DNA from: a candidate division FCPU426 bacterium
GTDB taxonomy: Bacteria > Oederibacteriota > JAAXVQ01 > JAUVAV01
Reading direction: 5' to 3'
DNA length: 64,000 nt
NCBI GenBank assembly: GCA_040756875.1
Contig: JBFLYH010000002.1
Coordinates: forward strand, 831,078-895,077
Under the pieces are notes generated by a model. It did no database searches and was not told where the DNA came from. It saw only the letters and a program-made list of their open reading frames with translations. Shown here one piece after another: positions 1,472-44,185 of the stretch; within the stretch, counting starts at the first letter, position 1, and every line of letters starts with the position of its first letter. Position numbers and translations under genes: made by a program.

Positions 1472-1539
1472 TAAAGGATGGTATCGAATAGCATCCGGCG
1501 GCCAGAGTGGTTAATCGGGCGGTCGGCGCTGGAGGGGAA

Positions 1540-9082: not shown

Positions 9083-10083
9083 CTTTCGGCCAGCCCTGGC
9101 TCCTGCTCGCGCTGCTGCTCCTGCCCGCGGCCTGGTGGCTGCGCCGCCAGGGCTGGGGCGAGCCGGCGGCTGTCGATTATCCGGAAGCCGCTTCGGTGCG
9201 CGGTGCCTTCCGGGGCGGCCGTCGTCCGGGCAGCGGCTGGGCTGAAACCCTGCGCGTGGCCGGCCTGATCCTGATCCTGCTGGCCGTGGCCCAGCCCCAA
9301 TGGCTGCACAGCACGCAGCAGCAGCAAGCCATAGGCCTGGATTTGCTGCTGGCCTTGGATCTGTCGGGGAGCATGTCCGCGCGGGATTTCGAGCCCCAAA
9401 ACCGGCTGCAGGCCGCCAAGGACGAAGCCCGGGCGTTCATCGCCAGGCAGCGGAACAACCGCCTCGGCCTGGTGGCGTTTGCGGCTCATGCGTTTACGGT
9501 TTGTCCGCTGACCCTGGATTACGGCGCCTTGCTGACGCTCATGGAGCACCTGAGCATCGGCATGACCACGGATGGCACGGCGCTCGGCATGGCCATCGCG
9601 ACCTGCGTGAACCGTCTGAAAGACTCTGAAGCGCCGTCCAAGGTGGTGGTCCTGCTCACCGATGGACGCAACAACGCCGGCCGCATCGATCCCCTGACCG
9701 CTGCCGAATTGGCCGCGGCCCTGAAGATCCGCATCTACACCATTGGCATGGGACAGCCGGAAGGCGGGCCGATTCTGCTGAAAAACGCGGCCGGTGAGGA
9801 AACCGCCATGCTGAATCCCGACGGCAGCGTGCATTTGGAAGCCATGGACGAGCCGACCCTGCAGCGCATCGCCCGGCTCACAGGCGGAAAATATTTTCGC
9901 GCCACGGACCGCAACAAACTGCGCGACATATACGCGGAGATCCAGGCCTTGGAAAAGTCCCGGCTGCTGTCCAAACGCTACACGGCCCGGGAGGATTTGG
10001 GCGGCTGGCTGCTGCTGGTTGCCATGTTGATCCTGTTGACGGAGACCGCGGTTTCGCAATGGTGGCAGCCGCGCGTGCCGTAA
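9079..10083 (+). CDS. batA: BatA VWA-domain protein
   Basis: ATG 9079 after GGAGG; MTFGQPWLL BatA N-terminus; MIDAS DLSGSM, GTALG, LLTDGRNNAG. Confidence 0.9.
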   Translation: MTFGQPWLLLALLLLPAAWWLRRQGWGEPAAVDYPEAASVRGAFRGGRRPGSGWAETLRVAGLILILLAVAQPQWLHSTQQQQAIGLDLLLALDLSGSMSARDFEPQNRLQAAKDEARAFIARQRNNRLGLVAFAAHAFTVCPLTLDYGALLTLMEHLSIGMTTDGTALGMAIATCVNRLKDSEAPSKVVVLLTDGRNNAGRIDPLTAAELAAALKIRIYTIGMGQPEGGPILLKNAAGEETAMLNPDGSVHLEAMDEPTLQRIARLTGGKYFRATDRNKLRDIYAEIQALEKSRLLSKRYTAREDLGGWLLLVAMLILLTETAVSQWWQPRVP

Positions 10084-10105
10084 ATTCAAAAACGGAGGAC
10101 AAAGG

Positions 10106-26167: not shown

Positions 26168-29083
26168 ATGCTGCTCATGAAAAGAAAGTGGCTGAGCCTG
26201 ATGCACGGGTGTCTGCTGGCCTGCCTGCTGGCAGCGGGCGGGAGCGCGGTTGCGTCCGCCGCGGACGACGAGAAGCAGCCGCCCTCCCCGGCCTGGGGCG
26301 GCCAACCGGTCAAGCGCACCTGGGGCTCGCCGGACAGCCAGGAGGAATTCGAGGAGCAGGTTCGGGAGCGCGCCGAGGAGGGCGGCGAGCTGCTTACCGC
26401 CCCATTGGCGGTTGACGAGGAGCCGACGGCTGCACCCACGTCCGCGTCCACGCCTGTTCCCGCGCCAGCGGTTCGCACTCCCCTGATCAAGCAGTACATT
26501 TACAAGCCCAAGGACTCCCCGCCGCCGGCGCCAGAACCCGAGGAAGGCGTGGAGCTGGACACCGCGCCCCTGGCCGGTTCCGAAGGGCCGGAGCAGCGGG
26601 TGATTTCGCTGCAGGCGCGGCTGGACCGGAACCCAGTGCATTTGGACGAGAGCTTTGCGCTGGTGGTGGAGATCCTGGCCGCGGACCTCGACCGCCTGCC
26701 CCCTGTCAAGCCCCCTCGCCTGCCGGAACTGAATCTGATCAACACCTACCAATCGCAAACGAGGATCGTGCGCCAGGGAACCGGCTGGTGGCTGAAAACC
26801 CAAGGGTTCGTCTATTTGGCCCGGCGTCCCGGCCGGTTCACGCTTCCGGGGATAAGCATGACCGCCGGCGGCCGGACGTACAGAACGCCAAACCTGGAGA
26901 TCGAAGTCGAAGGGTCGCGCAGCGGGCAAAGCTACCGCTCGCCGCTCTCCGGCGAACGGTACCAGCAGGGCGCGATCGTCCCCGGCGCCCCGGACATCGG
27001 CCACCTGGGCGAGCAAACCGGAGGAGCAGAGAGCGAATTTTTCGCCCGCCTGTCCGCGGCCAAGGCTTACGTCAATCAGGAAATCATCCTGACCGTGCAC
27101 CTGACGTATACAGTGGGCGAACGCACATCCGTGACCTACCGCCCGCCTGAAGCCGCGGGGTTTCTCATCGAGGAGCTGCCCGAGGAAAAAGCCGAGGAAC
27201 TGGTTTCCGGCGCCAGGCAGCGGAGCGTCGCGCACAAGTACCGGATGGCGCTGTTCGCCGTACGGCCCGGTGCCTTGACCATCGGCCCGGCGCAAGCCAT
27301 CTTTACCGACGCGGGCAGCAGCCGCACCCTGCAAACCGAACCCCTGGTGGTGGATATCACAGCCCTGCCGCCGGACCCCGAAGCACCGGACGCCGGCGGC
27401 CTGGTGGGCCGGTTCCAGCTGGAGCCGGATGTGCTGGAGATGCCTCGCGTGGGCAGTCCGGCCCGCGTCAGCCTGCGGCTCAGCGGGCAAGGCAACCTGC
27501 GGGCAGCGCCCGAACCCGCCTGGTCCGTGCCCAGCGGCTGCCGGTTGTTCCTGGAGAACCGGCAGGACGAATTGCAGCCGCAAGCCGAAGGGTTGTTCGG
27601 CACGCGGACGTATGCCTATTGGCTGATCTGCGACCAGCCCGGCGCCTTGCGGCTGGGGCCGGCCCGGATCCGCTATTTTGACCTGGGGCGAAAACAATGG
27701 TCCGAGGCCACAGCCGAGCTTCCGGTCCTGACTGTCGCCCCCAAGCCCGAAGCCGCCGCGGTCAAGGTTTCCTCGGCGGCAGCCCGGAAACTGAGTTTGA
27801 ATCCGGACCGCAGCAGCACCCGGCCGCTGCGCCCGGCGCCGCCCTGGAAATTGGCGACGCTGGGGTTCTGGGCCTGGCAGGGCATCGGGCCCGCGCTCCT
27901 GGGGATGTTATGGTGGGGGCGGCGCCAGCGAGAACGGGCGCGGGCCGAGGCCTCGACCTTGCGCGTCCGCCGCGCCTATGCCCAGGCCCGCAAGGCGCTG
28001 CGCCTGCTAAAGGGCTACATCCGCCGCCGCGAAGACCAGAAATTCTACGACGGCGTGGCCAGGACTGCGGCCGAGTACCTCTCAGCCAAATTAAACCAGC
28101 CCAGCGTGTTCGTCAACCTGGACCGCCTGCCGGATTTTTTCGGTCCGTACCACGTGCCGCCGGAATTATTGTCGCGTTTCCGCATTGCCTTGACGGCCAT
28201 TGAATACGTCCGGTACGCAGCCGTGGTCCTGCCCAACAAGGACATGGAATCCCTGAGGCAGGACCTGGAAAACGCAGTCGAGCAATTCGAGAAATTTTGG
28301 CAGAGCCGGCAGCGGTCGCAGCCGCGTCCGCCGTTGGCGCCCTGGGCAGGGTTGCTCCTGGTGGCGGTCTGTGCGCAGGCGGCCTGGGGGCAGGAGGAGG
28401 AATTGCGCCGCCTGCGGGGCGCCACGCTGGCCGAGCAGGGCGATTTGGCGGGGGCCGAGGCCGAATACCGGGCGATCCTGAACCTGGGCGTGACGGATCC
28501 GGAAGTGTTTTACAACCTGGGCAATGTTTATCTGCGGCAGGGAAAAGTCGGTCCCGCGGTTTTAGCTTACGAACGGGGCTTGCGCCTGGCACCCCGCGAC
28601 CCGGATTTAAAGCACAATTTAAAACAGGCCGAGGAACTTGTGGCCCAAATGTCGGAAGCGCCGCAGCCAAGAGACCCGGGTTGGGGAGGAGGCCTGTACC
28701 GGGCGGCCACGGCCAATGAACTTGCGGTCATGGCTTCTGTCTTCTATTATTTAATGCTGTTGCTGGTGGGGTTGAGAGGGTGGTGGCCGAAAAAATTCGG
28801 CCGCTTCCTCTGGGGCGTCTGGCTGGGAGCGGGGCTGGCGGTTGCTTTCGGCCTGTGGAGCGCGGCCCGGCAGTTTGAACCGCGTTGGCACAAACAAGGG
28901 GTGGTTTTGGTAGCCGGCGCGAGCGTCCATAGCCGGCCTTACACCCAGGCCGAGACCCTGTATGCCTTGCCCGAGGGGACGAGGGTCAGGGTTCGGGCCG
29001 AGGAAGAGGCTTGGGTCGAAATCGACTTCGCGCCGCACCAGCAGGGCTGGATCAGCCGCAGCGCGGTGGGCTGGATCGAATGA
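26168..29083 (+). CDS. batD: BatD-BatE fusion (BatD Ig-like repeats, TM, TPR, SH3)
   Basis: Signal peptide from ATG 26168/26177; BatD repeats (PGRFTLP, AYVNQEIIL, LSGQGNL); TPR YNLGNVYLRQG…YERGLRL; SH3 tail WVEIDF…GWI. Confidence 0.85.
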   Translation: MLLMKRKWLSLMHGCLLACLLAAGGSAVASAADDEKQPPSPAWGGQPVKRTWGSPDSQEEFEEQVRERAEEGGELLTAPLAVDEEPTAAPTSASTPVPAPAVRTPLIKQYIYKPKDSPPPAPEPEEGVELDTAPLAGSEGPEQRVISLQARLDRNPVHLDESFALVVEILAADLDRLPPVKPPRLPELNLINTYQSQTRIVRQGTGWWLKTQGFVYLARRPGRFTLPGISMTAGGRTYRTPNLEIEVEGSRSGQSYRSPLSGERYQQGAIVPGAPDIGHLGEQTGGAESEFFARLSAAKAYVNQEIILTVHLTYTVGERTSVTYRPPEAAGFLIEELPEEKAEELVSGARQRSVAHKYRMALFAVRPGALTIGPAQAIFTDAGSSRTLQTEPLVVDITALPPDPEAPDAGGLVGRFQLEPDVLEMPRVGSPARVSLRLSGQGNLRAAPEPAWSVPSGCRLFLENRQDELQPQAEGLFGTRTYAYWLICDQPGALRLGPARIRYFDLGRKQWSEATAELPVLTVAPKPEAAAVKVSSAAARKLSLNPDRSSTRPLRPAPPWKLATLGFWAWQGIGPALLGMLWWGRRQRERARAEASTLRVRRAYAQARKALRLLKGYIRRREDQKFYDGVARTAAEYLSAKLNQPSVFVNLDRLPDFFGPYHVPPELLSRFRIALTAIEYVRYAAVVLPNKDMESLRQDLENAVEQFEKFWQSRQRSQPRPPLAPWAGLLLVAVCAQAAWGQEEELRRLRGATLAEQGDLAGAEAEYRAILNLGVTDPEVFYNLGNVYLRQGKVGPAVLAYERGLRLAPRDPDLKHNLKQAEELVAQMSEAPQPRDPGWGGGLYRAATANELAVMASVFYYLMLLLVGLRGWWPKKFGRFLWGVWLGAGLAVAFGLWSAARQFEPRWHKQGVVLVAGASVHSRPYTQAETLYALPEGTRVRVRAEEEAWVEIDFAPHQQGWISRSAVGWIE

Positions 29084-31769: not shown

Positions 31770-33092
31770 ATGGCAAAATTAGGCATTTATATTTCCATAT
31801 CTCTTTCCTTCGTCCTTCCCTTGGCAACGGGTACAATCGTCAACGCCTCGATGCCGGCAAATGGTTATGAATATTGGTTTGACGATTTTGAAGGCATGCC
31901 CGGCGACCAACCTTCCAAATGGCAGGACCGCACTCAAAATCCGGCGTTTAGTTCGGAAATAACCTACGACAGCATTTCGTCCTTTGCCGTGGTTTCTCCC
32001 ACGGCGGATACGATCGAGCAGTTTAAAATCATACGCTCGGAGAATATCACCTGCGATACGACGTTCTATGACACGCTGGAGATCCGTGTGCCGGATATTT
32101 ATTATCCTGCAGCCACGCAGTGGACGATCGGGTTGCACGAAGGCGGATATGCAAATTATTTCAGTCTGCACAAACCGAGCGGGGCGACCGGGACGTTTGC
32201 CTTTGATTTTTTGCGCGATCTCGGATGGAGCGGGATAAAGACGTTTTATATCGAAGCCAGGGTCACGGCCGATCCCAGTGATTATTTCAAAATGGATTAT
32301 GTCCGTGTCTTTCATAATGCGACCGACAAAGTATATTTATGGAGGGAAGAATTCAACGGAGAAATCGCCCTGGCCTGCAAAAACTGGTGGGATGAAAACG
32401 AAGACAGCACGCTGAATGCCACCATTAGCCCGGATCCCACGCAAACGTACGCCCAAATCCAAATTGTCGGTCCTGAAATATTCGGAAAAGTAATAACACC
32501 GGGCGTGTATTGGAATCCTTCCAAATACAGCCGGGTATCGCTGGGGGTGGTTTCGATTTCTCCCAACACCGAGTGTACGGTGGAAGTGATCGATTTGATC
32601 ACCTATCAACATGCCACCCTGGGAACCATCACCCAGGAAGGGACATACGACTTCAATGTTTTCGAGGCGCCGGGCTGGAAATGGACCCAGGAAGAATTGC
32701 TCGCGATCCAGGTTTGGGTCAGCGCGGATCAGAGCGGGAAAAACTGCCTGATCGACTACATCCGCATTTATTCGTTCAAGGAGACCACGCCCACTCCCAC
32801 CCCCGATATAACGCCGTACTTTCCAGAGGGCGGATATGCCAGGCCGAATCCCTTCCTGCCCACCAGGGGGCAAAAAGCGTCTTTTAATTTCCGCCTCCCT
32901 CAGGCGGGTGCGGCTTACACCATCCGTATTTTCAATACCCGTGGCCGGCTGGTGCGGACGCTGGGGACGTCCTCGCGGCCGGAATGGGACGGCAGGGACG
33001 AAATGGGAAATATTTGCGAGGGCGGAATTTATTTTTATCAGATCGAGTCAGGCGGGTGGCGCATCAATGGACAGGTGGTACTGATTAAATGA
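31770..33092 (+). CDS. Secreted protein with two tandem jelly-roll/CBM-like repeats, PT linker and FlgD-Ig/T9SS-type CTD
   Basis: Signal peptide; repeats WFDDFEG…MDYVRVF and WREEFNG…IDYIRIY; TPTPTP; PNPF…IFNTRGRLVRTL…WDGRDEMG…GIYFYQI…VVLIK. Confidence 0.8.
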   Translation: MAKLGIYISISLSFVLPLATGTIVNASMPANGYEYWFDDFEGMPGDQPSKWQDRTQNPAFSSEITYDSISSFAVVSPTADTIEQFKIIRSENITCDTTFYDTLEIRVPDIYYPAATQWTIGLHEGGYANYFSLHKPSGATGTFAFDFLRDLGWSGIKTFYIEARVTADPSDYFKMDYVRVFHNATDKVYLWREEFNGEIALACKNWWDENEDSTLNATISPDPTQTYAQIQIVGPEIFGKVITPGVYWNPSKYSRVSLGVVSISPNTECTVEVIDLITYQHATLGTITQEGTYDFNVFEAPGWKWTQEELLAIQVWVSADQSGKNCLIDYIRIYSFKETTPTPTPDITPYFPEGGYARPNPFLPTRGQKASFNFRLPQAGAAYTIRIFNTRGRLVRTLGTSSRPEWDGRDEMGNICEGGIYFYQIESGGWRINGQVVLIK

Positions 33093-35275
33093 GGCGGCGG
33101 ATGAAAACGGAGAGCCGGTTCGTCTTTCGGTGTATCGCAGCCGGCGCCCGGCGGATCGGCACGGCGGCCCTTTTGCTGGCTTGGGCGGGTTCAGCCTTTG
33201 CCTATTTCCAGGATGCGGTGGATGGCGTGCGGCCCGCGGGCATGGGCGAAGCCTTTACCGGCGTGGCTGACGATGTCAACGCCATCCTGTTCAATCCCGC
33301 GGGGCTGGCGCAACTCCGGCAGATCGAAATCAATGGCATGTATTCCGATTTGTTTTCAGGTTTGCATACGCGGCTGTATAACGGGCAATTCGACCATGTC
33401 GGCTATAATTATCTTTCCGTGGCCGTGCCCATCGCCCCCTCGTTAGGGACCGTGGCCGCAGGCTGGGCGCAACTTCATTCGGTGTTTTATAAGGAAAACA
33501 CGTTTATTTTATCGTTCGGCCGCAGCATCTGGGCGCCTTACACCATGGCACTGGGAATCGAAGTCAGCGCCGGCGTCAATCTTAAAGGCTTGCACTGGCA
33601 AGTGGAACCCAACGAATATACCACCAATCCAGATTACTTTCCTTTCGGTGAAAAATACAAAGCGGCGTTTACCGCTGACGCTGGAGTGCTGGCGGCAGTG
33701 GGAGAAACCCTGCGGGTGGGAGCGAGCGTCGATAACATCATTCCCGCCGATGTAGGCTTGGCGGTCCATGAGCAGGTGCCCGTGGTTGTCAGGGCGGGGG
33801 GGAGTTATCGTTGGCCGTGGCGCTGCTGGTCCATGGACTCTTTATTGACGGCGGTGGAAGTGACGGCACGCAATCGGATTTACATACCCAAGGCCGGTGT
33901 CGAATCCTGGTGGTTCAACGAACGTCTGGGAGTCCGGGCGGGGATTCATACCGAAGGGGTAACCGCCGGATTGAGCATCCGCGAGCGGATACCCGAATCC
34001 CCCTTGGGCATTCAGCTGGACTATGCCTTCGCCTATCCTTTCTATGTCGCGGACACCCTGGGGTCCCATCGCGTCGGTTTTCTACTGAGGTGGGATCCGG
34101 CCCCCGTTCTCCCGCCGCCATCGCAATCACCGCTACAGCTGCCCGACGTCTACTTGATTCCCAAAATGCAACTGGCAACGGCGCTCGTGCAAGCGATTAA
34201 CGATGCATCTCAGACCGCCCAGGACCTAGCGGATCGAGCGGAACAGGTGGCCACGGAAACCAGGACGCTGGCCTCCCCCGAAGCCGCCAGCAGAGCGGCC
34301 GCTGAAACCGCCAAACTTACCGAGGCCGCGCAGCAGGTTCGGACCCTTGCCGAGCAGGCGGCGGCACTGGCCAGTCGCATGGCAAAGCTGCGCCAGTTGG
34401 CGGAGGCGGAAGCCGTTTTGAATGAATTGCAAATGATTGAGCAAACAGCCAGCCGCAGGACAACGGAATTAGGCAGGACGCTGGACGAGGTTTACACCGC
34501 GCGTTATTTTGTACCCGAAAAAGACCGAAATACCATTGTCGTCGGCATACAAACCGAAATTTTTTCGGATTTCGGGCCGCGGGAGCAAATCGACCCGAAG
34601 CTGATGATATTGAGAACATATCTTGAAGCGGAAACCGGGATGAAGATCGAATTTCGCGAATACAATATTGACAATCTTAAAAACGATTTCATTCATGGTT
34701 ATATCGATGTTTTGGCCGCCTATTCAGCGGTGTTGCAACCCTATGTGGAATATCAATCGCTTAAGCCGATTGCGACCATTCAGACCAAAGGCCAAACCAG
34801 CCAACCCTGCTGTTTGTTTGCGGCCAATGACCAACCGTTCGCCCGGCCCGAAGATTTGAAAGACAAACGGTTGGGATATTTCCACTCGGAAATCCTTCCG
34901 CACATCAAGGAATATTTTTATCCCGCGAGTGGGCTTTATAACAATCTTCATTATTTTAGAAACACCTTTAAATTCAAAAACGGTCCGGATGCCTTGGGTG
35001 CACTGCAAATGAAAGGCGTGGATGCCATCGTGGGGTTCGCTTATATGCTGAAAATAGCGGACAATCTCAATGCGGAATATCCCATTGGCATTAAATGCAT
35101 TGCGAAATCAAAGCTGATCCCCAATCAACCGCTCTATTACCGCCCGTCGAGAAATCCGGTGAAACAGCAGCAAATGAATCTGTTGGCGGATGCCCTGTTG
35201 CGTTTTCACGAGAATCCCGCGGCGGAGTCTTTCTTGAATTACTTCGGAATCGACCGCTTTGTGCCGGTCCAGTAA
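33089..35275 (+). CDS. PorV-family barrel fused via an Ala/Glu-rich coiled coil to a PhnD/SsuA-like substrate-binding domain
   Basis: GVRPAGMGEAFTGVADDVNAILFNPAGLA; barrel ends DYAFAYP…LGSHRVGFLLRW; coiled coil; YLEAETGMKIEF, DLKDKRLGY, KGVDAIVG, SKLIPNQP, FGIDRFVP. Confidence 0.78.
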   Translation: MRRRMKTESRFVFRCIAAGARRIGTAALLLAWAGSAFAYFQDAVDGVRPAGMGEAFTGVADDVNAILFNPAGLAQLRQIEINGMYSDLFSGLHTRLYNGQFDHVGYNYLSVAVPIAPSLGTVAAGWAQLHSVFYKENTFILSFGRSIWAPYTMALGIEVSAGVNLKGLHWQVEPNEYTTNPDYFPFGEKYKAAFTADAGVLAAVGETLRVGASVDNIIPADVGLAVHEQVPVVVRAGGSYRWPWRCWSMDSLLTAVEVTARNRIYIPKAGVESWWFNERLGVRAGIHTEGVTAGLSIRERIPESPLGIQLDYAFAYPFYVADTLGSHRVGFLLRWDPAPVLPPPSQSPLQLPDVYLIPKMQLATALVQAINDASQTAQDLADRAEQVATETRTLASPEAASRAAAETAKLTEAAQQVRTLAEQAAALASRMAKLRQLAEAEAVLNELQMIEQTASRRTTELGRTLDEVYTARYFVPEKDRNTIVVGIQTEIFSDFGPREQIDPKLMILRTYLEAETGMKIEFREYNIDNLKNDFIHGYIDVLAAYSAVLQPYVEYQSLKPIATIQTKGQTSQPCCLFAANDQPFARPEDLKDKRLGYFHSEILPHIKEYFYPASGLYNNLHYFRNTFKFKNGPDALGALQMKGVDAIVGFAYMLKIADNLNAEYPIGIKCIAKSKLIPNQPLYYRPSRNPVKQQQMNLLADALLRFHENPAAESFLNYFGIDRFVPVQ

Positions 35276-35287
35276 AAGGATGAAGGA

Positions 35288-36565
35288 ATGAGTGCGAGCA
35301 TCATGGTTAGAAAGCATTGGCCGGTGATCGTCGGCGGAGTCATCCTAGGCATGACCTTGTCCGCCGTGGGTGTCATATGGATGAATATCAGGGATTTCGA
35401 GCGTCAGCGTAATCGCGAACACTTTGATCTGGCGCAGAACATCGCCCGGACGTCCATGGTGTTCATTAACAACTTGCAGTACGATTATTTCCATCAAATC
35501 ATCAGACTGTTGACCCAGATCTCCTTTATTCCCTACATGGATGTCAATCTCGAAGGCAAGACCGTCCTGCGCAGCGGCTTGGCGCCGGAGCGGTTTCCGT
35601 CATGGCCGGAACGCGCCGCCGACTCGTGGGTCCATTTGGACGCGAAGCAAAATCTGGTGTTTGTTCAGCAGCCGCTGGAACTGAAAGGCGTCAGGAACGC
35701 GGAATTGCGCATGGTATTTTCGCAGGCCGGATTTCAGCAGTCCAAGCAGATGATCGGATATGCCATTGTTTTAATCCTCGTCCTGTTGAGTCTGACCCTC
35801 TTTTTCATGTCTCTGCTGGCCCGTGCCCACCTGGCTCTGGCCCAGGCGGAGAAAAACAAGTCGGAAATGATCCGCCGCATTGCCCACGACGCCAAACAGG
35901 AATTGACGGTCATTGTCGGAAAAACCGCGGTCAATCTGAGCAGACTGAAAAAAGGCCCCGGCAACGAGCAGTTGGAACGGGATTTGAAGCTGACGCAGGA
36001 GAGCGCCGAGTCCATCGAAAATTATCTGAACAACTTGAACGACCAGAGCAAACTCGCCGCCGGACAGACTGAAATCATTGCCGCGGACATCGATATTGTC
36101 AAAGTCATCAGAAACGTTTTGGAAAGCCACGCCGAAACCGTGGCGCAGTACGGTTTGAAATTCATTTTTGAACCGGCCGCCGCCCCTTGCCGCGCCTGGG
36201 CTGATCCGCACGCCGTCAAACGGGTCCTGGTCAACCTGATCCACAATGCCATCAAGTATTCAAGCCCCGGTAGCGTGATCGAGATCAAAGTCGAAACCAA
36301 CGGCTTATGGCAGAAATTATTCGTCCGCGACCAGGGCGCGGGCATTGCCCCGGAAAACTGGGAAAAAATCTTTGAACCGTATGTTCAAATCGATCCCAAA
36401 GGCAAAGGCATGGGGCTTGGCTTGACGAATGCCAGGCAATTGATCCGGCGTTTGGGAGGCGAACTGAAAGTGATCGCGAGCCAAAAGGGCAGGGGAACGA
36501 CTTTTGCATTCACGCTTCCCATCCACGAGATGTCAACCCCGGTCACGGAAGGAAGGGCGACATGA
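35288..36565 (+). CDS. Membrane sensor histidine kinase
   Basis: Two TM helices around a periplasmic domain; IAHDAKQELT H-box; NLIHNAIKYS; DQGAGI; IFEPY; GMGLGL. Confidence 0.93.
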   Translation: MSASIMVRKHWPVIVGGVILGMTLSAVGVIWMNIRDFERQRNREHFDLAQNIARTSMVFINNLQYDYFHQIIRLLTQISFIPYMDVNLEGKTVLRSGLAPERFPSWPERAADSWVHLDAKQNLVFVQQPLELKGVRNAELRMVFSQAGFQQSKQMIGYAIVLILVLLSLTLFFMSLLARAHLALAQAEKNKSEMIRRIAHDAKQELTVIVGKTAVNLSRLKKGPGNEQLERDLKLTQESAESIENYLNNLNDQSKLAAGQTEIIAADIDIVKVIRNVLESHAETVAQYGLKFIFEPAAAPCRAWADPHAVKRVLVNLIHNAIKYSSPGSVIEIKVETNGLWQKLFVRDQGAGIAPENWEKIFEPYVQIDPKGKGMGLGLTNARQLIRRLGGELKVIASQKGRGTTFAFTLPIHEMSTPVTEGRAT

Positions 36566-37959
36566 CCAAAATACTGGTATTGGACGACGAAGTCCTGGTT
36601 TTGGAAACCATCACCGGCATCCTGCAGGGCGAAGGCTACACAGTGGAATCGAGCCGGCAGACGGAAGGGGTCCTGCAACGCATCGCCGACTTTAATCCCG
36701 ATCTGGTCACTTTGGATCTTCGCTTTGGCGACGATGAAATGGCGGGCGTCAAAGTGATCCAGCAGATCCGGGGGAAGTATTCGCGGGAGCAGCTTCCCAT
36801 CATTGTGATCAGCGGCCGCGGAGACGCCGTGAAGCTTAAGCAGCTTCTCAAACAGGGGTTGGATGACTACATCTACAAACCGTTCAAATCGGAAGAGTTG
36901 CTGGAAAAAGTTCAAACCAGCTTGGCCAGACGCCAGCCCAGCCGTGAAAACGGGCGCGAGCGGATTGACACCGAGATGATCGGCGGTCAAGCGATCATGG
37001 ACCTGATGCTCAAACTGGAGCGCCGGGCGAAAGCGCAATTGGACACTCTGATTTTGGGGGAAAACGGAACCGGCAAGGACATGTTTGCGAAACTGTATCA
37101 CCAACTCAGCCCGAGGCAGGACCAGCCGTTTTACCACATCAACTGTCCGGCCATCCCGCCCACTTTATTCGAGGCGGAAATCTTCGGCCGGGAAAAGGGG
37201 GCCTATTCCGGCGCCGTGTTCAGCCGCGGAAAAATCGAAGAGGCGGCCGGGGGCATCGCCTTTTTCAATGAGATTGGGGAACTGAATCTGGACGTGCAGG
37301 CCAAATTGCTGCATTTGTTCGACACGGAAAAGAAGACTTTTTGCCGCGTGGGCGGCAATCAACCGATTGAACTGGATGTCATCGTCATTGCGGCCACCAA
37401 CCGCAATCTGGAGCAAATGGTCAAGGAGGGTCGCTTTCGGCAGGATTTGTTTTATCGCCTTAAAACCGAACCCATCGTGCTTCCTCCGCTCAGGCAGCGG
37501 CGCGAAGACATACCCCTGCTGATCGATTACTTCATCAAAAAATACAACCAGCGCTTCAGAAAAAACATACAGCCTGCCGCACCCTCCTTGGCGGCACGAA
37601 TTTCGAAACTGGAGCTGTCCGGAAACGTCAGGGAACTGGAGAAAGGGCTGGAAGTGGCAGTGGGCAATTGCCGCGGCAATAATTTGGCCTGGGAGGATTT
37701 TGCCGATTTTTTTCCATCCCACCCCGATACGCTGCCACAACCGGGCGGCGAGAAAAGCATTTACGAATTGGACTATCTGGCCATGCGCGAGTATGTCAAA
37801 GGCAAGACCGAAGAGTTGGAGAAGGATTACCTCCAATACCATTTGGCTCAAAACGGGTTTAATCCCACCCAAACTGCCGTGAAGCTGAACATGAAAAACA
37901 CCAAGTACATTTACGAGCGTATGCGTTTGCTCAACATTAAGTTGAATGAGTATAACTGA
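36562..37959 (+). CDS. NtrC-family sigma54-dependent response regulator (REC-AAA+-HTH)
   Basis: ILVLDDE/LVTLD receiver; GENGTGKD; GAYSGA; AATNRNL; FRQDLFYRL; GNVREL. Confidence 0.93.
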   Translation: MTKILVLDDEVLVLETITGILQGEGYTVESSRQTEGVLQRIADFNPDLVTLDLRFGDDEMAGVKVIQQIRGKYSREQLPIIVISGRGDAVKLKQLLKQGLDDYIYKPFKSEELLEKVQTSLARRQPSRENGRERIDTEMIGGQAIMDLMLKLERRAKAQLDTLILGENGTGKDMFAKLYHQLSPRQDQPFYHINCPAIPPTLFEAEIFGREKGAYSGAVFSRGKIEEAAGGIAFFNEIGELNLDVQAKLLHLFDTEKKTFCRVGGNQPIELDVIVIAATNRNLEQMVKEGRFRQDLFYRLKTEPIVLPPLRQRREDIPLLIDYFIKKYNQRFRKNIQPAAPSLAARISKLELSGNVRELEKGLEVAVGNCRGNNLAWEDFADFFPSHPDTLPQPGGEKSIYELDYLAMREYVKGKTEELEKDYLQYHLAQNGFNPTQTAVKLNMKNTKYIYERMRLLNIKLNEYN

Positions 37960-38227: not shown

Positions 38228-38243
38228 TGGCACGGTTTCTGCT
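38228..38243 (+). promoter_or_regulatory. sigma54 -24/-12 promoter upstream of the ECF sigma gene
   Basis: TGGCACGGTTTCTGCT: GG and GC separated by 10 bp; near-consensus TGGCACG-N4-TTGCW; directly downstream of a sigma54 activator gene. Confidence 0.75.
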
Positions 38244-38291: not shown

Positions 38292-38867
38292 ATGAAAAAC
38301 CTTGAACCGCTGAACGACGAAAAATTACTGCTCATGCTTCGCCGGGGATCAAAGGATGCCGGAGAAGTTATTTTTAAACGGTATTACCCGGCGGTGCTGG
38401 GGCTGAGCCGGAAATACCTGTGTTGCCAACATGACGCCGAAGACATTGCCCAGGAAGTTTTCTTACGCGCCTTGGCCATGGATAAAATAAGGAAGTTCAG
38501 GGGAGAAAGCAGCCTACGTACCTGGCTTTTTAGGATCGCCATCAATTTGTGCTATTCCAAGCACCGTAAACACCGGGAAAAGTTGCTGCTCAACGACGAA
38601 AAGCATCCGGAACCGGTTATTCCCTCGGGAGGCCCTGACCCCGAGGAAGAGGCCATGCGCCTGGAAGCGAAGCATCAACTGCGGGTGGCGCTGTGGAAGC
38701 TTCCGAAAAAGTATCAAACCGTGATCGCGCTTTTTTATCAGGACCAACGGACGTACAGCGACATCGCGAAAACCCTTCGGCAGTCCGTGGGAAGTATCGG
38801 CGTGTGCTTGAAACGCGGCCGGGCCATCTTGAACCGGCGATTGGCCTACCGGGGCGTATGGGTTTAA
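38292..38867 (+). CDS. ECF-family RNA polymerase sigma-70 factor
   Basis: DAEDIAQEVFL; FRGESSLRTWLFRIAIN region 2; region 4 LPKKYQTVIAL…TYSDIA. Confidence 0.92.
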   Translation: MKNLEPLNDEKLLLMLRRGSKDAGEVIFKRYYPAVLGLSRKYLCCQHDAEDIAQEVFLRALAMDKIRKFRGESSLRTWLFRIAINLCYSKHRKHREKLLLNDEKHPEPVIPSGGPDPEEEAMRLEAKHQLRVALWKLPKKYQTVIALFYQDQRTYSDIAKTLRQSVGSIGVCLKRGRAILNRRLAYRGVWV

Positions 38868-38883
38868 AATTCCTCAATAATGA

Positions 38884-38912
38884 TTGACGCGGCCTTTTTC
38901 AGCCCCTAAAAT
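38884..38912 (+). promoter_or_regulatory. sigma70-type promoter for the 38993 lipoprotein
   Basis: TTGACG-17 bp-TAAAAT. Confidence 0.55.
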
Positions 38913-38992
38913 ACTGCCCCAATGCAGGTCATTCGTTTCCCCGGCAAACCGGAGTCCTTCCGGCAGGGGCAAACTAAAACGGAGGAAAAGGA

Positions 38993-39538
38993 ATGGAAAG
39001 CAGGCAGTGGGTAGTAGGCACGATGGCCGTATTGGGTTTGTTGGTTGCAGCCGGATGCGCGCAACCGCCGGAGCAGGAAAAGGGCGCCGCGCAGACAGCC
39101 ATGCAGGCCGCACTCCAAGGCGGGGCCGAAACCTATGCGATGGCGGCTTGGAATGAAGCCAAGACCAAATGGGACGCCGCCGAGCAGCAGATGCAGCAGA
39201 AAGTGTATGCCCAAGCGAAAGTGGCGTACTTGGAAGCCAAAGCCGCTTTTGATTCATCTCTGGGCCAGGTCGAAGCCGGCAAGCAGAGCATGATAGCCGC
39301 CAACCAAACGGCATTGGCCGAGATGGAAAAGAGTTGGAGTGAAGCCACGGCGTTGTCTAAAAAAGCCATGAAAAAAATGTCGGTTGAATTAAAACAAGCC
39401 TGGACCGCGGAATCCAAAATGGTGGATGACGCGTTGAAAACGGCCAAGGACAACCTGGCGGCTCCGGCCGAAATTAAGCAAAAATTGGATGAAGTCAAAG
39501 CGTTGGTCGATAAATGGCTGGGTGAATTAAAAAAGTAA
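38993..39538 (+). CDS. Alpha-helical lipoprotein (DUF4398-like)
   Basis: Lipobox VAAG-C; Ala/Lys/Glu-rich helices, GAETYA motif; GGAGG RBS. Confidence 0.75.
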   Translation: MESRQWVVGTMAVLGLLVAAGCAQPPEQEKGAAQTAMQAALQGGAETYAMAAWNEAKTKWDAAEQQMQQKVYAQAKVAYLEAKAAFDSSLGQVEAGKQSMIAANQTALAEMEKSWSEATALSKKAMKKMSVELKQAWTAESKMVDDALKTAKDNLAAPAEIKQKLDEVKALVDKWLGELKK

Positions 39539-39556
39539 TCCTTTCCTGGTTTTCCG

Positions 39557-39590
39557 AACGCCCCGGGACGCTGTCCCGGGGCGTTTTTAT
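39557..39590 (+). terminator. Rho-independent terminator
   Basis: 13-bp perfect stem AACGCCCCGGGAC/GTCCCGGGGCGTT with 3-nt loop, followed by T-rich tract. Confidence 0.85.
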
Positions 39591-39901
39591 TTATAAACGT
39601 ATATAATAAAAGAAGCCTGCTTTTCCGGTTCGTCTTATCCGCAGTCGTCCCCAGTCGACAGCTCGTTTGGGAATTTGGTCTGGAGGCATAAAAAAGTCTT
39701 TCAATTCCTCCCGGGCGTTATATAGTAAAGCCGGGCGAAGGCCTGCGGCGCAGGGCAAACCGCCGCGGACCCGAGGCGGCTTTCGGCCAAAGAAACCCTG
39801 GACGCGTTCGTTCATCCCATCAAAAAGGAGTGCCTTCGCCGGGGTGATCTGGCGAGCGCATTTCCAATCCAAGCAACAGCCGTTTGCCAGGAGGAACCGA
39901 C

Positions 39902-40948
39902 ATGAAAAAAAACAATCTGGTTTTAACGGTACTAGTGCTGGGCATGCTGGTTTTTCTTTCGGTGGGATGCGGACCCGGGCAAAAAACGGGGCAAAGCCAG
40001 GTCCTTTATCATTGCACCATGCACCCTCAAATCATCCGGGACCATCCCGGGAAATGTCCGATCTGTGGCATGGATTTAGTTCCATTCACACCTCCGGCCA
40101 CCCCCGAAGCGACGAAGCCCGGCCTTTCGTCCGAAGGAAGCGCGATGACCATGCCGCAACAGGACCAGGCGGTCGAGGTGGATGTCCGCCGCCAGCAGCT
40201 CATCGGCGTCAAGACGGTCGTAGCTACGCGGCGAACGCTGGAAAAGACCCTGAGGGTGCAGGGAGAAGTGGCGCACGATCCGGAGATGTACCAGGCCCAG
40301 GCCGAATATCTCCGCGGCCTGGCAGCCGGTGGCGAAGGGGGGTTGCAGAGCGCCAGCCGTTTGAAACTGGAGCACATGGGCATGAGTCCTGATTTGATCC
40401 GCCGCCTGGAACGGCGCGGGCGGCCGCAGCGCAACCTGTTCGTCCGGGACCAGGACCCGGTATTTTGGATCTATGTTTATTTCTACGAGGCCGACCTGCC
40501 GTTTCTTTCGCTAGGGCAGCCGGTTGCCGTCCGGGTGCCCAGGCTGGGCGGACAACATGACGGCGTTTTGAGGGGTTTGCAGCCGTACGTGGAGCCGGCC
40601 GCCCGCACAATCCGGGGCATTGTGGAAGTGCGCGATCCTGAATTGCGGTTGTATGCCGGCTTGTATGCGGATGCCGAGGTTCGCCTGACGCTGCCCGAAG
40701 CAGTGGTCATCCCAGCCTCGGCCGTGCTCGATTCCGGCACCCGGCAGGTCGTGTTTGAGCTGACCGGGCCGGGCCGGTTTGAACCGCGGGAAGTGCAGAT
40801 CGGCGCCGTGGCGGGCGAATTCGCCCAGGTGCTAACCGGAGTGGAAGCCGGCGCCAGCGTGGTGACGGACGGGAACTTCATGCTCGACGCCGAAAGCCGC
40901 CTGCAGTCGGTGGTGAAAGAGACGGCTCCGGCCGGCCACCAGCACTAG
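39902..40948 (+). CDS. cusB: CusB-like RND periplasmic adaptor with heavy-metal-binding domain
   Basis: Lipobox SVG-C; YHCTMHP…CPICGMDL; IPASAVLDSG…VVTDGNFMLDAES. Confidence 0.85.
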   Translation: MKKNNLVLTVLVLGMLVFLSVGCGPGQKTGQSQVLYHCTMHPQIIRDHPGKCPICGMDLVPFTPPATPEATKPGLSSEGSAMTMPQQDQAVEVDVRRQQLIGVKTVVATRRTLEKTLRVQGEVAHDPEMYQAQAEYLRGLAAGGEGGLQSASRLKLEHMGMSPDLIRRLERRGRPQRNLFVRDQDPVFWIYVYFYEADLPFLSLGQPVAVRVPRLGGQHDGVLRGLQPYVEPAARTIRGIVEVRDPELRLYAGLYADAEVRLTLPEAVVIPASAVLDSGTRQVVFELTGPGRFEPREVQIGAVAGEFAQVLTGVEAGASVVTDGNFMLDAESRLQSVVKETAPAGHQH

Positions 40949-41023
40949 CGGACCCGCTCGCGGCGCCTTCCCGGACGGTCCGGATCGGCGCCGGAATCTT
41001 TGCTGCCAGGGAGAGTCGTGCCT

Positions 41024-44000
41024 ATGCTGTCCAAGTTAATCGCCTGGTCCATCCGCAACCGCATCCTGGTCACCCTGCTGACGATCCTGGTCATCGGCTG
41101 GGGGGCTTATGCCCTGGTAAAAACACCGGTGGACGCCATCCCGGATTTATCCGACGTGCAAGTCATCCTCTACACCCAGTATCCCGGGCAATCACCCCGC
41201 GTCGTGGAAGACCAGATCACCTATCCCCTGACCACGGCCATGGTCTCAGTGCCGGGTGCCCAGGCCGTACGGGGGTATTCTTTCTTTGGCTACTCGCTGG
41301 TCTACATTATTTTTAAGGACGGCACGGATCTGTATTGGGCCCGGAGCCGCGTCCTGGAGTACATCAATTACGCCCAGCAGCGCCTGCCTGCCGGCGTGCT
41401 GCCGATCCTGGGGCCGGACGCCTCGGGGGTGGGCTGGGTGTACCAGTATGCGCTGGTCTCGGACCAACGCCCCCTGCATGAGCTGCGCTCGCTGCAGGAT
41501 TGGTATTTGAAATACGAACTGGCGAGCGTTCCCGGCGTGGCCGAAGCCGCCAGCCTCGGCGGCTTCGTCAAACAGTACCAAGTGACCGTCGATCCCAGCC
41601 GCCTGCAGGCGCTGGGCCTCACGCTGGGAGACGTGGAGGCGGCCATCAAAGCCGGCAACCAGGACACGGGCGGCGAAGTGGTGGTGCTGGGCGAGCGCGA
41701 GTACATGATCCGGGGGCTGGGATACCTCAAATCCATCGGCGATTTGGAGCAATTGCCGGTGGCCTGGCGCCCCAACCAGCAGGGCGGCACCCTGCCGGTG
41801 TATCTCAAGGACGTGGCAGACATCCGGCTCGGGCCGGAAATGCGCCGCGGCGTGGCCGAACTCGACGGCCAGGGCGAAACCGTGGGCGGGATCGTGGTCA
41901 TGCGGTTCGGCGAAAACGCCCGGGACGTCATCCGCCGCGTGAAGCGCAAGCTGGAAGAGCTCAAGGCCGGGCTGCCGGCGGACGTGCGGATCGTGCCGGT
42001 GTATGACCGGTCCCGGCTGATCACGCGGGCCATCGACAATCTGCGTGGCAAGCTCTTCGAGGAAATGCTGATCGTGGCCCTGGTCTGCCTGATGTTTCTG
42101 TTTCACGCCCGGAGCGCGCTGGTGGCGGTGTTCACGCTGCCGACGGCCATCCTGATGTCTTTCATCGTCATGCGCAGCCAGGGCATCAATGCCAACATCA
42201 TGTCCCTGGGCGGGATCGCCATTGCCATCGGCGCCATGGTCGACGCCGCCATCGTCATGATCGAGAACGCCCACAAACACCTGGAACGGGAAGAGGCGCT
42301 GCCGGCCCGGCGGCGCCGGCCGCACTGGCAGGTCATCCTGGAGGCTTCGCAGGAGGTGGGGCCGGCCCTGTTCTGGTCCCTGCTGGTGATTACCGTCTCG
42401 TTCGCGCCCATTTTCGCGCTGGAGGCGCAGGAAGGGAGATTGTTCCGGCCGCTGGCGTTCACCAAGACTTACGCCATGGCGGCCGCGGCGCTTTTGGCCG
42501 TGACCATCGTGCCCGTGCTGATGGGGTTCTTCATCCGCGGGCGCGTTCCGTCCGAAGCCAGCAATCCCGTGAACCGCTGGCTGTTGCAGCGCTACCACCC
42601 GCTGGTGCAGTGGGTCCTGCGCCATGCCCGGGGCGTGCTGCTGGCCGCCGCGGGGGTCGTGGCTTTGGGCGCGGTGCCGCTGCTGCGCCTGGGCACGGAA
42701 TTCATGCCGCCCCTCTTCGAAGGCGACCTCCTGTATATGCCTACCACCCTGCCCGGATTGTCCATTGCCGCGGCCCGCGACTTGCTGCAGCGGACCGACC
42801 GCCTGATACGCTCTTTTCCCGAAGTGGAGCGCGTGTTCGGTAAAATCGGGCGGGCCGAAACCGCCACCGACCCCGCCGGGCTGGACATGATCGAGACCAC
42901 GATCCAGCTCAAGCCCCGCAAGGCCTGGCGCCGCGGCCTGACGGAAGCGAAGCTGATCGCGGAGCTGGACCGCACGGTGAAGCTGCCGGGGCTGACCAAC
43001 GCCTGGACCATGCCGATCAAGGCGCGCACGGACATGCTGGCCACGGGGATCAAAACGCCGGTGGGAATCAAGCTGTCAGGGCCGGACCTGGGCGAATTGC
43101 AGCGCCTGGGGACCCAGATCGAGGCGGTTCTGCGCCGCGTGCCGGGAACGGGATCGGCCTTTGCCGAGCGGGCCATGGGGGGATATTATCTGGACATCGC
43201 CATCGACCGGCCGGCCGCGGCCCGCTACGGCGTCAATGTGGAGGACCTGAACCGGGTGATTCAAATGGCCCTGGGCGGCATGAACGTCACCACCACGGTG
43301 GAAGGGCTGGAACGGTATCCGGTCAACGTGCGCTACAGCCGTGAATTGCGGGACAGCGTGGAATCCATCCGGCGCGTGCTGGTGGCCACGCGGACCGGCG
43401 GGCAAGTGCCCTTGGCGCAAGTGGCGGACATCAAGCTGTCGCCCGGGCCCATGGTCATCCGCACTGAAAACTCACGGCCGAACGCCTGGGTCTTCGTGGA
43501 CGTGCGGGGCGTGGATCTGGGGACGTACATCCACCGCGCTCAGACGGCCATCGGGAAAGCGCTGCGACTGCCGGAGGGGTACACCCTGACTTGGAGCGGC
43601 GAATTCGAATACCTGCAGCGGCTGCACCGCCGGCTGCTGCTGGTGGTTCCCCTGACGCTCTTCATCATCGTGCTGATCCTATATCTCAACACCCGCTCCC
43701 TGGCCAAGACCGCCATCGTACTGCTGGCCGTGCCGTTTTCCCTGGTCGGCGCCCTGTGGTTTGTCTACGCGTTGGGATACAATTTAAGCCTGGCGGTCTG
43801 GGTGGGCCTGATTGCGCTCGCCGGCCTGGACGCGGAAACCGGCGTGGTGATGCTGTTGTATCTGGACCACGCTTACGAGGCGGCGCGCAGCCGCGGCCGT
43901 ATGAACGGGCTTTCCGATTTGCGCGTTGCGATCGACCAGGGGGCGGTCCAGCGTGTGCGCCCCAAAGTCATGACCGCGGCCGTCATCATTGCAGGCTTGC

Positions 44001-44185
44001 TGCCGATTTTCTGGGGCGCGGAGGCCGGGTCGGACCTGATGCGGCGGATTGCGGCTCCCATGATGGGCGGGGTGGTGACCTCGGTGCTGATGGAGCTGGC
44101 CGTGTATCCGGCGATTTATTATTATTGGCGCGGGTGGCGCTGGCTGCGGCCCGGACGCCGCGCGGAAAAACCCTTGCCAGCATAG
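41024..44185 (+). CDS. cusA: CusA/CzcA-family heavy-metal RND efflux pump
   Basis: DAIPDLSDVQV; NIMSLGGIAIAIGAMVDAAIVMIEN; EFMPPLFEGDLLYMP; DMLATGIKTPVGIK; RVRPKVMT. Confidence 0.95.
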   Translation: MLSKLIAWSIRNRILVTLLTILVIGWGAYALVKTPVDAIPDLSDVQVILYTQYPGQSPRVVEDQITYPLTTAMVSVPGAQAVRGYSFFGYSLVYIIFKDGTDLYWARSRVLEYINYAQQRLPAGVLPILGPDASGVGWVYQYALVSDQRPLHELRSLQDWYLKYELASVPGVAEAASLGGFVKQYQVTVDPSRLQALGLTLGDVEAAIKAGNQDTGGEVVVLGEREYMIRGLGYLKSIGDLEQLPVAWRPNQQGGTLPVYLKDVADIRLGPEMRRGVAELDGQGETVGGIVVMRFGENARDVIRRVKRKLEELKAGLPADVRIVPVYDRSRLITRAIDNLRGKLFEEMLIVALVCLMFLFHARSALVAVFTLPTAILMSFIVMRSQGINANIMSLGGIAIAIGAMVDAAIVMIENAHKHLEREEALPARRRRPHWQVILEASQEVGPALFWSLLVITVSFAPIFALEAQEGRLFRPLAFTKTYAMAAAALLAVTIVPVLMGFFIRGRVPSEASNPVNRWLLQRYHPLVQWVLRHARGVLLAAAGVVALGAVPLLRLGTEFMPPLFEGDLLYMPTTLPGLSIAAARDLLQRTDRLIRSFPEVERVFGKIGRAETATDPAGLDMIETTIQLKPRKAWRRGLTEAKLIAELDRTVKLPGLTNAWTMPIKARTDMLATGIKTPVGIKLSGPDLGELQRLGTQIEAVLRRVPGTGSAFAERAMGGYYLDIAIDRPAAARYGVNVEDLNRVIQMALGGMNVTTTVEGLERYPVNVRYSRELRDSVESIRRVLVATRTGGQVPLAQVADIKLSPGPMVIRTENSRPNAWVFVDVRGVDLGTYIHRAQTAIGKALRLPEGYTLTWSGEFEYLQRLHRRLLLVVPLTLFIIVLILYLNTRSLAKTAIVLLAVPFSLVGALWFVYALGYNLSLAVWVGLIALAGLDAETGVVMLLYLDHAYEAARSRGRMNGLSDLRVAIDQGAVQRVRPKVMTAAVIIAGLLPIFWGAEAGSDLMRRIAAPMMGGVVTSVLMELAVYPAIYYYWRGWRWLRPGRRAEKPLPA

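Follow-up and report, generated by a model that had tools for sequence, protein, structure and literature searches.

A PorV-like barrel fused to an ArrX/AioX-like binding domain, encoded beside a putative kinase, sigma-54 regulator and ECF sigma factor cascade

What does an outer-membrane barrel do with a binding-protein domain in the same polypeptide? The question is raised by a gene at positions 33089-35275 (+) of a 64,000-nucleotide stretch of contig JBFLYH010000002.1, from a candidate division FCPU426 bacterium (assembly GCA_040756875.1). We call this whole stretch the window. The product of the gene (hereafter the fusion) is, in all likelihood, the outer-membrane-tethered binding-protein component of a cascade that runs through a histidine kinase and a sigma-54 response regulator to an extracytoplasmic function (ECF) sigma factor. 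Consistent with this proposal, the four genes adjoin in 6/6 loci when these are compared by tblastn and Pfam, namely the window and five loci fetched from genome assemblies (L001, L005, L008, L009 and L012; L001 and L005 come from a single assembly). More specifically, the fusion probably acts as the ligand-binding first member of a three-component system like AioX-AioS-AioR, hung on a barrel and joined, as a second layer, by a docked surface protein.

Architecture and conservation of the fusion

The open reading frame (ORF) begins with ATG, stays open in a single frame throughout and encodes 728 amino acids (aa). Its parts are listed below; confidence values are predicted local distance difference test (pLDDT) scores of AlphaFold2 (AF2) models.

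33089..33202 (+): signal peptide, residues 1-38, predicted cleavage between SAFA and YFQD (read from sequence)
33203..34093 (+): PorV/FadL-type 14-strand outer-membrane barrel with an N-terminal plug segment, residues 39-335 (AF2, Foldseek, profile)
34094..34153 (+): Pro-rich flexible linker, residues 336-355 (sequence; pLDDT <50 at 339-355)
34154..34504 (+): Ala/Glu/Gln-rich helical spacer, helices 356-394, 397-432 and 437-472 (AF2, pLDDT of the block mostly 82-93)
34535..35275 (+): ArrX/AioX-like periplasmic binding-protein domain (PF12974), residues 483-728 plus stop codon (Pfam, Foldseek, profile)

The database gene call for the fusion (P0004, 682 aa) begins at residue 47, 46 codons past the first ATG, and is thus a shortened call without an apparent signal peptide. 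The A-YF junction at residues 38-40 is kept across the family alignments, which favours the longer ORF over the P0004 start; Tyr39 and Phe40 (33203-33208), the first residues past the predicted cleavage, are invariant or nearly so in the family. Public annotation names the family solely as 'PhnD/SsuA/transferrin family substrate-binding protein', a name that hides the barrel and suggests transport.

How widespread is this architecture? A word-index search found 8 other full-length relatives (31-59% identity, 94-99% coverage), and a profile search of 1.84 billion representatives returned 12,379 matches at E<=1e-3, 396 of which reached E<=1e-30. Further proteins of 630-850 aa from the profile search were included in a family alignment of 25 full-length members, and these relatives align to the window protein at 27-58% identity. 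The family is found in poorly known, uncultured lineages, among them Candidatus Firestonebacteria (L009). One additional protein, P0084 (287 aa), consists of the binding domain alone and looks N-terminally truncated. An earlier note on this DNA had proposed that the fusion would fall if it were a sequencing artefact missing from homologues. We exclude an assembly or gene-calling artefact joining two genes, the chance of which is negligible: the single frame is open, the same architecture is present in 25 proteins from several sources and contigs and in the 5 fetched loci, and nothing was found in support of such an origin, the later start of P0004 merely showing that start-site calls differ.

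The full-length AF2 model, built with nine full-length homologues (mean pLDDT 76, predicted template-modelling score (pTM) 0.46), contains in order 14 strands (residues 79-335), three helices and an alpha/beta domain at residues 482-725 with pLDDT ~90. A barrel-only model from 60 sequences (pLDDT 89.5, pTM 0.82) again has 14 strands. When the barrel was compared with the PDB by Foldseek, rank 1 was PorV chain 8gl6_F (E 4e-10, TMq 0.63), taken from a type IX secretion complex that holds the C-terminal domain of RemA; FadL, TodX and OmpG came next, and another PorV chain, 6h3i_F, stood at rank 15. The matches include several FadL Phe3 mutants, and Tyr39-Phe40 recalls the N-terminus of FadL, which has a gating role. 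At the sequence level, the barrel family profile retrieved the same PorV chain, 8gl6_F, from the PDB (E 3.7e-4), and PDB searches with the single fusion protein or with the full-length profile returned no barrel relative. The NCBIfam model PorV_fam (NF033709) matches residues 46-243 (E 2.2e-10) with 40.6 bits, under the curated 90, and Pfam UPF0164 matches residues 46-108 weakly. PorP_SprF (PF11751) gave no match to the window protein at E<=0.01; the relative P0009 carries PF11751 in precomputed annotation.

To what else is this barrel joined? We scanned 73 longer or otherwise notable proteins among 150 matches listed, and PorP_SprF matched the barrel part of 13 of them. The counts of accompanying modules were as follows.

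PF12974 behind the barrel: 14/73
PF12974 without a barrel: 4/73
OmpA: 16/73
TPR repeats: 11/73
LysM: 3/73
HHH_3: 2/73
CarboxypepD_reg: 1/73

Judged by these matches, the barrel family is large and modular. OmpA and LysM domains bind peptidoglycan, and their occurrence after the barrel in relatives argues that the C-terminal extension of the family is periplasmic. In L005, the paralogous cassette of the genome that also contains L001, the ECF sigma gene is followed at once by a second, stand-alone PorV-like barrel (13547-14497, +, 316 aa, UPF0164 E 1.9e-4).

The whole spacer between barrel and binding domain measures 147 aa in the window protein (residues 336-482) and ranges over 58-275 aa among the 25 members, with roughly three length groups (58-97, 141-173 and 266-275); some of the short spacers are Pro-rich instead of helical. 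The grouping looks as if a helical unit of ~120 residues were absent, present once or present twice. With a helix rise of 1.5 Å per residue, the spacer would reach ~5-6 nm as a three-helix bundle and ~17 nm as an extended rod.

What kind of binding protein ends the chain? Pfam PF12974 (Phosphonate-bd) matches residues 507-727 (E 2.5e-15; 57 bits, cut-off 27). In a Foldseek search with the full-length model, ArrX came out on top (E 1.1e-15, target TM 0.69-0.74), followed by AioX, the PhnD-like sterol transporter 7t1m (6th), XAC2383, PtxB and PhnD; the target TM to PhnD and PtxB was 0.63-0.74. When searched against the PDB, the 25-member profile placed ArrX (5e-12) and AioX (5e-10) ahead of PtxB (1e-7) and PhnD (3e-7). 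The AioX pocket is reported to include Tyr88, Cys106, Tyr131, Ser161, Ser163, His192 and Asp210 (PMC5908839). The window domain differs from AioX/ArrX in this respect: in the HMMER alignment, ArrX Tyr138 corresponds to Gln572, and both serines of the ArrX MSFSGH motif correspond to Glu601 and Leu603. Among the 25 members, 20 have an acidic residue at position 601 and 23 have Leu, Ile, Val or Met at position 603; residues 572-576 often form a Q-x-C-C-L motif, which is not invariant in the family. Thus, at the three pocket positions mapped through ArrX, the oxyanion-type Tyr and Ser-x-Ser are absent, and because these contacts are replaced neither a phosph(on)ate nor an arsenic oxyanion is a likely ligand.

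These results largely bear out what the earlier note had read from the letters. The uninterrupted 728-aa ORF is confirmed by the ORF call and its translation, and all the parts that it was said to join (barrel, Pro linker, helical spacer and binding domain) were found with limits within a few bases: the barrel, placed to ~34095, has its last strand ending at residue 335 (nucleotide 34093), and the Pro linker follows it at once. A PF12974 match above the gathering score was obtained, as an InterPro check had been expected to give, and the C-terminal periplasmic-binding-protein fold, whose absence would have spoken against the proposal, was recovered by Foldseek (ArrX, AioX, PtxB, PhnD). Two descriptions stand in part. 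'PorV-type' agrees with the fold and with a weak similarity of profiles, and the PorV_fam score stays below its curated cut-off; a ~110-aa coiled coil at ~34160-34500 was correctly positioned, and is modelled as three helices of ~37 residues with two breaks.

The kinase, the sigma-54 regulator and the ECF sigma gene

To which partner would a tethered binding domain report? A kinase gene and a regulator gene, neither of them mentioned in the earlier note, lie directly downstream of the fusion and are followed by a sigma factor gene with its own candidate promoter.

35288..36565 (+): sensor histidine kinase P0002, 425 aa, HisKA and HATPase_c (Pfam)
36562..37959 (+): NtrC-type response regulator, receiver and sigma-54 AAA+ activator (Pfam/NCBIfam)
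38228..38242 (+): candidate sigma-54 -24/-12 promoter, TGGCACGGTTTCTGC, ending 50 nucleotides (nt) upstream of the ECF sigma start codon (consensus scan)
38292..38867 (+): ECF-type sigma-70 factor, 191 aa, Sigma70_r2 and Sigma70_r4_2 (Pfam)

By eye, two hydrophobic segments in the kinase flank a periplasmic loop of ~125 aa. The regulator start overlaps the kinase stop by 4 nt, an overlap of the same length as that between the fusion and the gene upstream of it. The ECF sigma gene begins 332 nt past the regulator, and its L005 copy also matches Sigma70_ECF. The order is fusion, kinase, regulator, sigma in the window, L001, L005 and L009, and kinase, regulator, fusion, sigma in L008 and L012. 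The linkage of the four genes thus survives rearrangement, which argues that they form a functional unit.

The earlier note had favoured sensing over transport on the ground that no ABC permease or ATPase was nearby. Indeed, no ABC-transporter Pfam match was found in the 41 ORFs called in the window, nor in the 24 ORFs scanned in L005, L008, L009 and L012, a transporter encoded elsewhere being possible. Sensing is further upheld by the kinase, regulator and ECF sigma genes adjacent in every locus and by the nearest relatives of the binding domain, ArrX and AioX, which are sensors. This positive evidence is stronger than the argument from an absent transporter.

Is the sigma gene itself under the control of the regulator? 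We scanned for the sigma-54 consensus TGGCAC-N5-TTGC (10 specified bases), and the best match in the window is the one at 38228-38242. A match occurs at the equivalent place in 6/6 loci, ~50-110 nt upstream of the ECF sigma protein match. Each upstream region was shuffled 2000 times, and the shuffles that reached the observed score were counted.

Window: 9/10 bases; 14/2000 shuffles
L001: 9/10 bases; 8/2000 shuffles
L005: 9/10 bases; 3/2000 shuffles
L008: 10/10 bases; 0/2000 shuffles
L009: 8/10 bases; 68/2000 shuffles
L012: 10/10 bases; 0/2000 shuffles

The ECF sigma factor is therefore likely the output of the cascade. Inspection by eye of four loci for a shared ECF-type promoter upstream of the operon revealed nothing convincing. 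We also looked for an anti-sigma factor beside the ECF sigma gene and found at 38993-39538 a helical lipoprotein and at 38874-39314 an antisense ORF without a family match. The lipoprotein ORF and its terminator are:

38993..39538 (+): helical lipoprotein, 181 aa, Ala/Lys/Glu-rich, lipobox LVAAGC (homologue in L001 alone)
39556..39586 (+): terminator with a 14-bp stem, 3' of the lipoprotein ORF

The L001 copy matches DUF4398 weakly. The lipoprotein ORF is probably co-transcribed with the ECF sigma gene and is outside the conserved core.

Taken together with the adjacency of the genes, these features suggest how the cascade could operate. The tethered binding domain would contact the periplasmic loop of the kinase, which would then phosphorylate the regulator; the phosphorylated regulator would open the sigma-54 promoter of the ECF sigma gene, and the ECF sigma factor, once made, would switch on its own regulon.

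The surface protein upstream and the role of the barrel

If the binding domain serves the kinase, why is it carried by a barrel of the PorV type? A possible answer comes from the gene that precedes the fusion.

31770..33092 (+): upstream gene P0003, 440 aa; signal peptide, two beta-rich repeats of ~150 aa, Pro/Thr linker and sorting domain
32817-33089 (+): C-terminal domain of P0003, residues ~350-440, candidate sorting domain of type IX secretion system (T9SS) type (weak family matches)

The TGA stop of P0003 overlaps the ATG of the fusion (ATGA, 33089-33092). Its sorting domain matches FlgD_ig (E 1.7e-5), CHU_C (8.6e-5) and Por_Secre_tail TIGR04183 (7e-4), and this C-terminal domain is the best-conserved part of the P0003 family. 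The database call for the upstream protein (P0166, 398 aa) starts 42 codons past the first ATG, without an apparent signal peptide. Next to the module, L001, L005 and L008 have P0003 homologues; the L005 locus encodes two C-terminal-domain proteins, one of 1617 aa and one of 954 aa, and the 954-aa protein matches CBM_4_9 weakly. In place of such a gene, L009 has a glycosyltransferase gene upstream, and L012 a divergently transcribed gene for an unrelated secreted protein. Look-alikes of the P0003 repeats in the ESM Atlas reach scores of just 0.90-0.92 and include rows named for the glycan-binding families SGBP_B_XBD, CBM27 and CBM_4_9, which makes glycan binding a lead at most. We saw no family of the type IX core (SprA/Sov, PorK/L/M/N) among the 41 ORFs of the window, 64 kb being a small sample. 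Elsewhere in the window, among TPR proteins, a protein encoded at 1507-2991 (+) has a clear sorting tail (Por_Secre_tail E 2.7e-11, 44 bits against 27); C-terminal-domain cargo is thus not confined to the cassette.

Does the barrel hold the sorting domain of P0003? We modelled a complex of barrel residues 36-340 (60-row alignment) with P0003 residues 350-440 (4-row alignment) and obtained a score of 0.84 (runs 0.84, 0.85 and 0.83), against 0.00 for the best of 3 controls. The mark applied to this score was reached by 116/157 solved complexes and 2/215 mismatched pairs, a rough calibration since custom alignments were used here. The runs agree in >=89% of contacts, with a partner pLDDT of >=82. 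On the barrel, the interface comprises residues 37-43, 88-104, 129-136, 170-185, 223-231, 262-264, 288-289 and 317-322 and takes 7/7 of the odd inter-strand connections and 0/6 of the even ones; the predicted docking face is therefore opposite the C-terminal stalk. It includes Y134, E136 and W170, which are invariant in the 25 members, and on the partner the invariant CEGG-Y segment and the last strand of the sorting domain; Tyr39 and Phe40 touch the docked domain. On this modelling, the barrel probably docks the C-terminal domain of the neighbouring surface protein.

A link between P0003 and the binding domain also emerged from proteins that lack a barrel. P0088, P0098 and P0151 end in the same binding-domain subfamily (profile E 9e-59, 6e-56 and 2e-47), have a signal peptide or lipobox-like leader and contain neither barrel nor sorting domain. 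Their N-terminal parts consist of 2-3 repeats of the P0003 domain: BLASTP matched P0003 to P0098 at 4e-9, 5e-8 and 2e-6, to P0088 at 7e-6 and to P0151 at 4e-4. The P0003-family profile, run against 169 proteins, scored P0098 at 73.7 bits and P0088 at 29.2 bits and gave no match to P0151 at E<=0.01; P0151 is similar in its N-terminal part to both P0088 and P0098 (~1e-64). A word-index search with P0003 returned 4 clusters including its own and missed the fused forms. As far as these sequences tell, there are two architectures, one with repeats plus sorting domain in one protein and barrel, spacer and binding domain in another, and one with repeats and binding domain in a single chain. Since the repeats are fused directly to the binding domain in the barrel-less relatives, the simplest reading would be that repeats and binding domain function as one unit, and the sorting domain and the barrel would stand in for a peptide bond.

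In the second layer of the reading that we favour, the outer face of the barrel would thus hold the sorting domain of the co-transcribed P0003, as PorV/PorP-like barrels hold cargo. A surface module of two beta-rich repeats and a periplasmic sensor domain would thereby be kept together through the outer membrane.

Several points weigh against this proposal. We infer every functional step of the cascade. Since the window and L001 are closely related (58-85% identity), the six loci amount to about five independent lineages. Sigma-54-like matches with <=2 mismatches are not enriched over the window as a whole (59 against a shuffle mean of 93), and the case for the promoter rests on the position test in the six loci. 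The mapped oxyanion contacts of the binding domain are lost and its pocket positions vary among members; the domain may take no small ligand at all. As the spacer varies over a nearly fivefold range of lengths, the stalk is not a fixed-length ruler. With respect to the second layer, all sorting-domain matches of P0003 lie below curated cut-offs, a C-terminal-domain protein adjoins the module in 4/6 loci (the window, L001, L005 and L008), and the adjacency is equally compatible with P0003 as a product that the cascade could regulate. Finally, resemblance to the solved PorV-substrate complex 8gl6, and not a binding of the pair's own, may account for the complex score.

How far might the barrel do more than hold its partner? 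P0003 might act as a lectin-like surface protein docked on the barrel, and ligand binding or docking outside might be relayed through the barrel to the stalk-borne domain and on to the kinase, the sigma-54 activator and the ECF sigma factor. We consider this version tentative and rather unlikely, and the same holds for a true signal relay across the outer membrane taken by itself. The route might be the conserved N-terminal Tyr-Phe plug segment, which in the model touches the C-terminal domain; sorting domain and barrel would then form a detachable joint, and one sensor would straddle the outer membrane without TonB.

Conversely, the barrel could, like that of OmpA, do no more than anchor a binding domain that detects some small molecule in the periplasm and signals to the kinase, P0003 being only a product or cargo. 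Such an arrangement is about as doubtful as the relayed signal. The barrel family bears many unrelated C-terminal modules (OmpA, TPR, LysM, HHH_3, CarboxypepD_reg) and so behaves as a general anchor, a P0003 homologue is missing in L009 and L012, and the evidence on kinase, regulator and sigma factor requires no surface partner. However, the three barrel-less relatives that fuse the P0003 domain to the binding-domain subfamily would be hard to explain if the two were unrelated, and the docking prediction and the overlapping stop and start codons of P0003 and the fusion also speak against a plain anchor.

Alternatively, the cassette could report the export or docking of the surface protein, with the ECF sigma factor adjusting secretion or surface genes. 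This form of feedback has a precedent in Porphyromonas gingivalis PorA (PMC12152298, PMC7712824), and the cassette brings together the same cast: a C-terminal-domain protein, a PorV-like barrel, a kinase, a regulator and an ECF sigma factor. We nevertheless judge it improbable: the ArrX/AioX-like binding domain would be left without an obvious job, and no type IX core genes were seen in the small 64-kb sample. The regulator is moreover a sigma-54 activator, which PorX is not known to be.

Least of all do we expect an uptake device, very unlikely as it is, in which the FadL-like barrel would admit a hydrophobic or other nutrient and the tethered binding protein would deliver it to a transporter encoded elsewhere: FadL and TodX come right behind PorV among the structural matches, the name of PF12974 refers to ABC-transport binding proteins and a sterol transporter ranks 6th by fold, but 0/6 loci have a permease or ATPase gene while all have the kinase and regulator, the nearest relatives of the binding domain are sensor proteins, and an outer-membrane tether would hamper shuttling to an inner-membrane permease.

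Known systems and neighbouring genes

How does a barrel-tethered binding-protein component compare with known systems? In the arsenic system, AioX is described as the binding protein, AioS as the kinase and AioR as an AAA+ regulator that works on an RpoN promoter (PMC5908839). Like the fusion module, the AioXSR and ArrXSR systems place a binding protein beside a kinase and a regulator (6/6 loci here), and the window regulator is of the AAA+ sigma-54 type, as is AioR. In contrast, AioX and ArrX stand alone, with 266-305 residues in PDB chains, whereas the window domain is tethered to a barrel, and the output of AioXSR is an oxidase operon whereas that of the window is an ECF sigma gene.

PorV and PorP share with the window barrel the 14-strand FadL-type fold, PorV being the closest solved structure. 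We know of no PorV or PorP with a binding-protein domain. Genes of the porP type adjoin a gene for a C-terminal-domain protein, as the fusion gene does (L009 and L012 excepted). PorP is reported to bind the type B protein PG1035 and the periplasmic PorE, a protein of TPR, beta-propeller, CRD and OmpA_C domains (PMC9143113). The TPR, OmpA_C and CRD domain types of PorE resemble modules fused after the barrel in paralogues of the fusion (OmpA, TPR and CarboxypepD_reg).

For the cassette as a whole, the closest functional precedent is the PorA-PorV/PorY-PorX-SigP pathway of P. gingivalis. In that pathway, PorA is reported to be PorV-bound on the surface, its C-terminal domain to bind the kinase PorY in the periplasm, and PorA to activate PorXY-SigP, SigP being an ECF sigma factor (PMC12152298, PMC7712824). 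The P. gingivalis genes are scattered and the C-terminal domain itself binds the kinase, whereas the window has one cassette with a barrel-tethered binding domain interposed. To our knowledge, PorXY-SigP has no binding-protein domain and no sigma-54 step.

Other systems resemble the cassette in part. In FecA-FecR-FecI, as in the window cassette, an outer-membrane barrel with a periplasmic signalling extension has an ECF sigma factor as final output. The barrel of FecA has 22 strands and bears its signalling domain at the N-terminus, and it works with an anti-sigma partner and energy from TonB; unlike this system, the window has a barrel of 14 strands extended at the C-terminus, together with a two-component system and a sigma gene controlled through its transcription. 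In plant-associated Pseudomonas, HrpR/HrpS act on HrpL, an ECF sigma factor transcribed from a sigma-54 promoter. The window cassette is like HrpR/HrpS-HrpL in its sigma-54-driven ECF sigma gene; the two systems have unrelated inputs and regulons. OmpA-type proteins, like the fusion, anchor a C-terminal periplasmic domain through an N-terminal barrel, of 8 strands in OmpA, but the OmpA domain binds peptidoglycan and has no sensor role. The fusion is thus built from known kinds of parts in a new combination.

Binding proteins of Gram-negative bacteria are presented as diffusible in the periplasm in a 2021 review (PMC8050422), and its text nowhere mentions 'outer membrane' or 'fused'. Searches of the open full-text literature turned up no report of a solute-binding domain joined to a barrel. 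A sensor protein covalently hung from an outer-membrane barrel would change the picture of freely diffusing binding proteins, and PorV/PorP-like barrels would gain a signalling role beyond cargo shuttling or anchoring. Because the cassette is compact and self-contained, it could be moved to a test host, in which the passage of information across the outer membrane without TonB could be examined directly.

Several other genes of the window surround the cassette. Genes of the Bat-like aerotolerance type, for two VWA proteins and a 1011-aa BatD/TPR/SH3 protein, lie at 8509-11878 and 26048-29083 (+), and synteny with L001 extends to the BatD, DUF2148 and CreD genes ahead of the module. Just past the cassette terminator, 39884-44185 (+) encodes a CusB-like membrane-fusion protein that carries the heavy-metal-binding domain HMBD and then an AcrB/CusA-type RND pump; in the other loci, different genes occupy this position. 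A 2331-aa ORF at 14425-21420 (+) is of the Tc-toxin-complex type (SpvB, TcdB middle N and C regions, FG-GAP and RHS repeats) and is followed at 21552-26126 (+) by a 1524-aa ORF with a TcA C-terminal TcB-binding domain and PKD domains. Such adjacent Tc-toxin-type ORFs are unusual in an uncultured environmental lineage.

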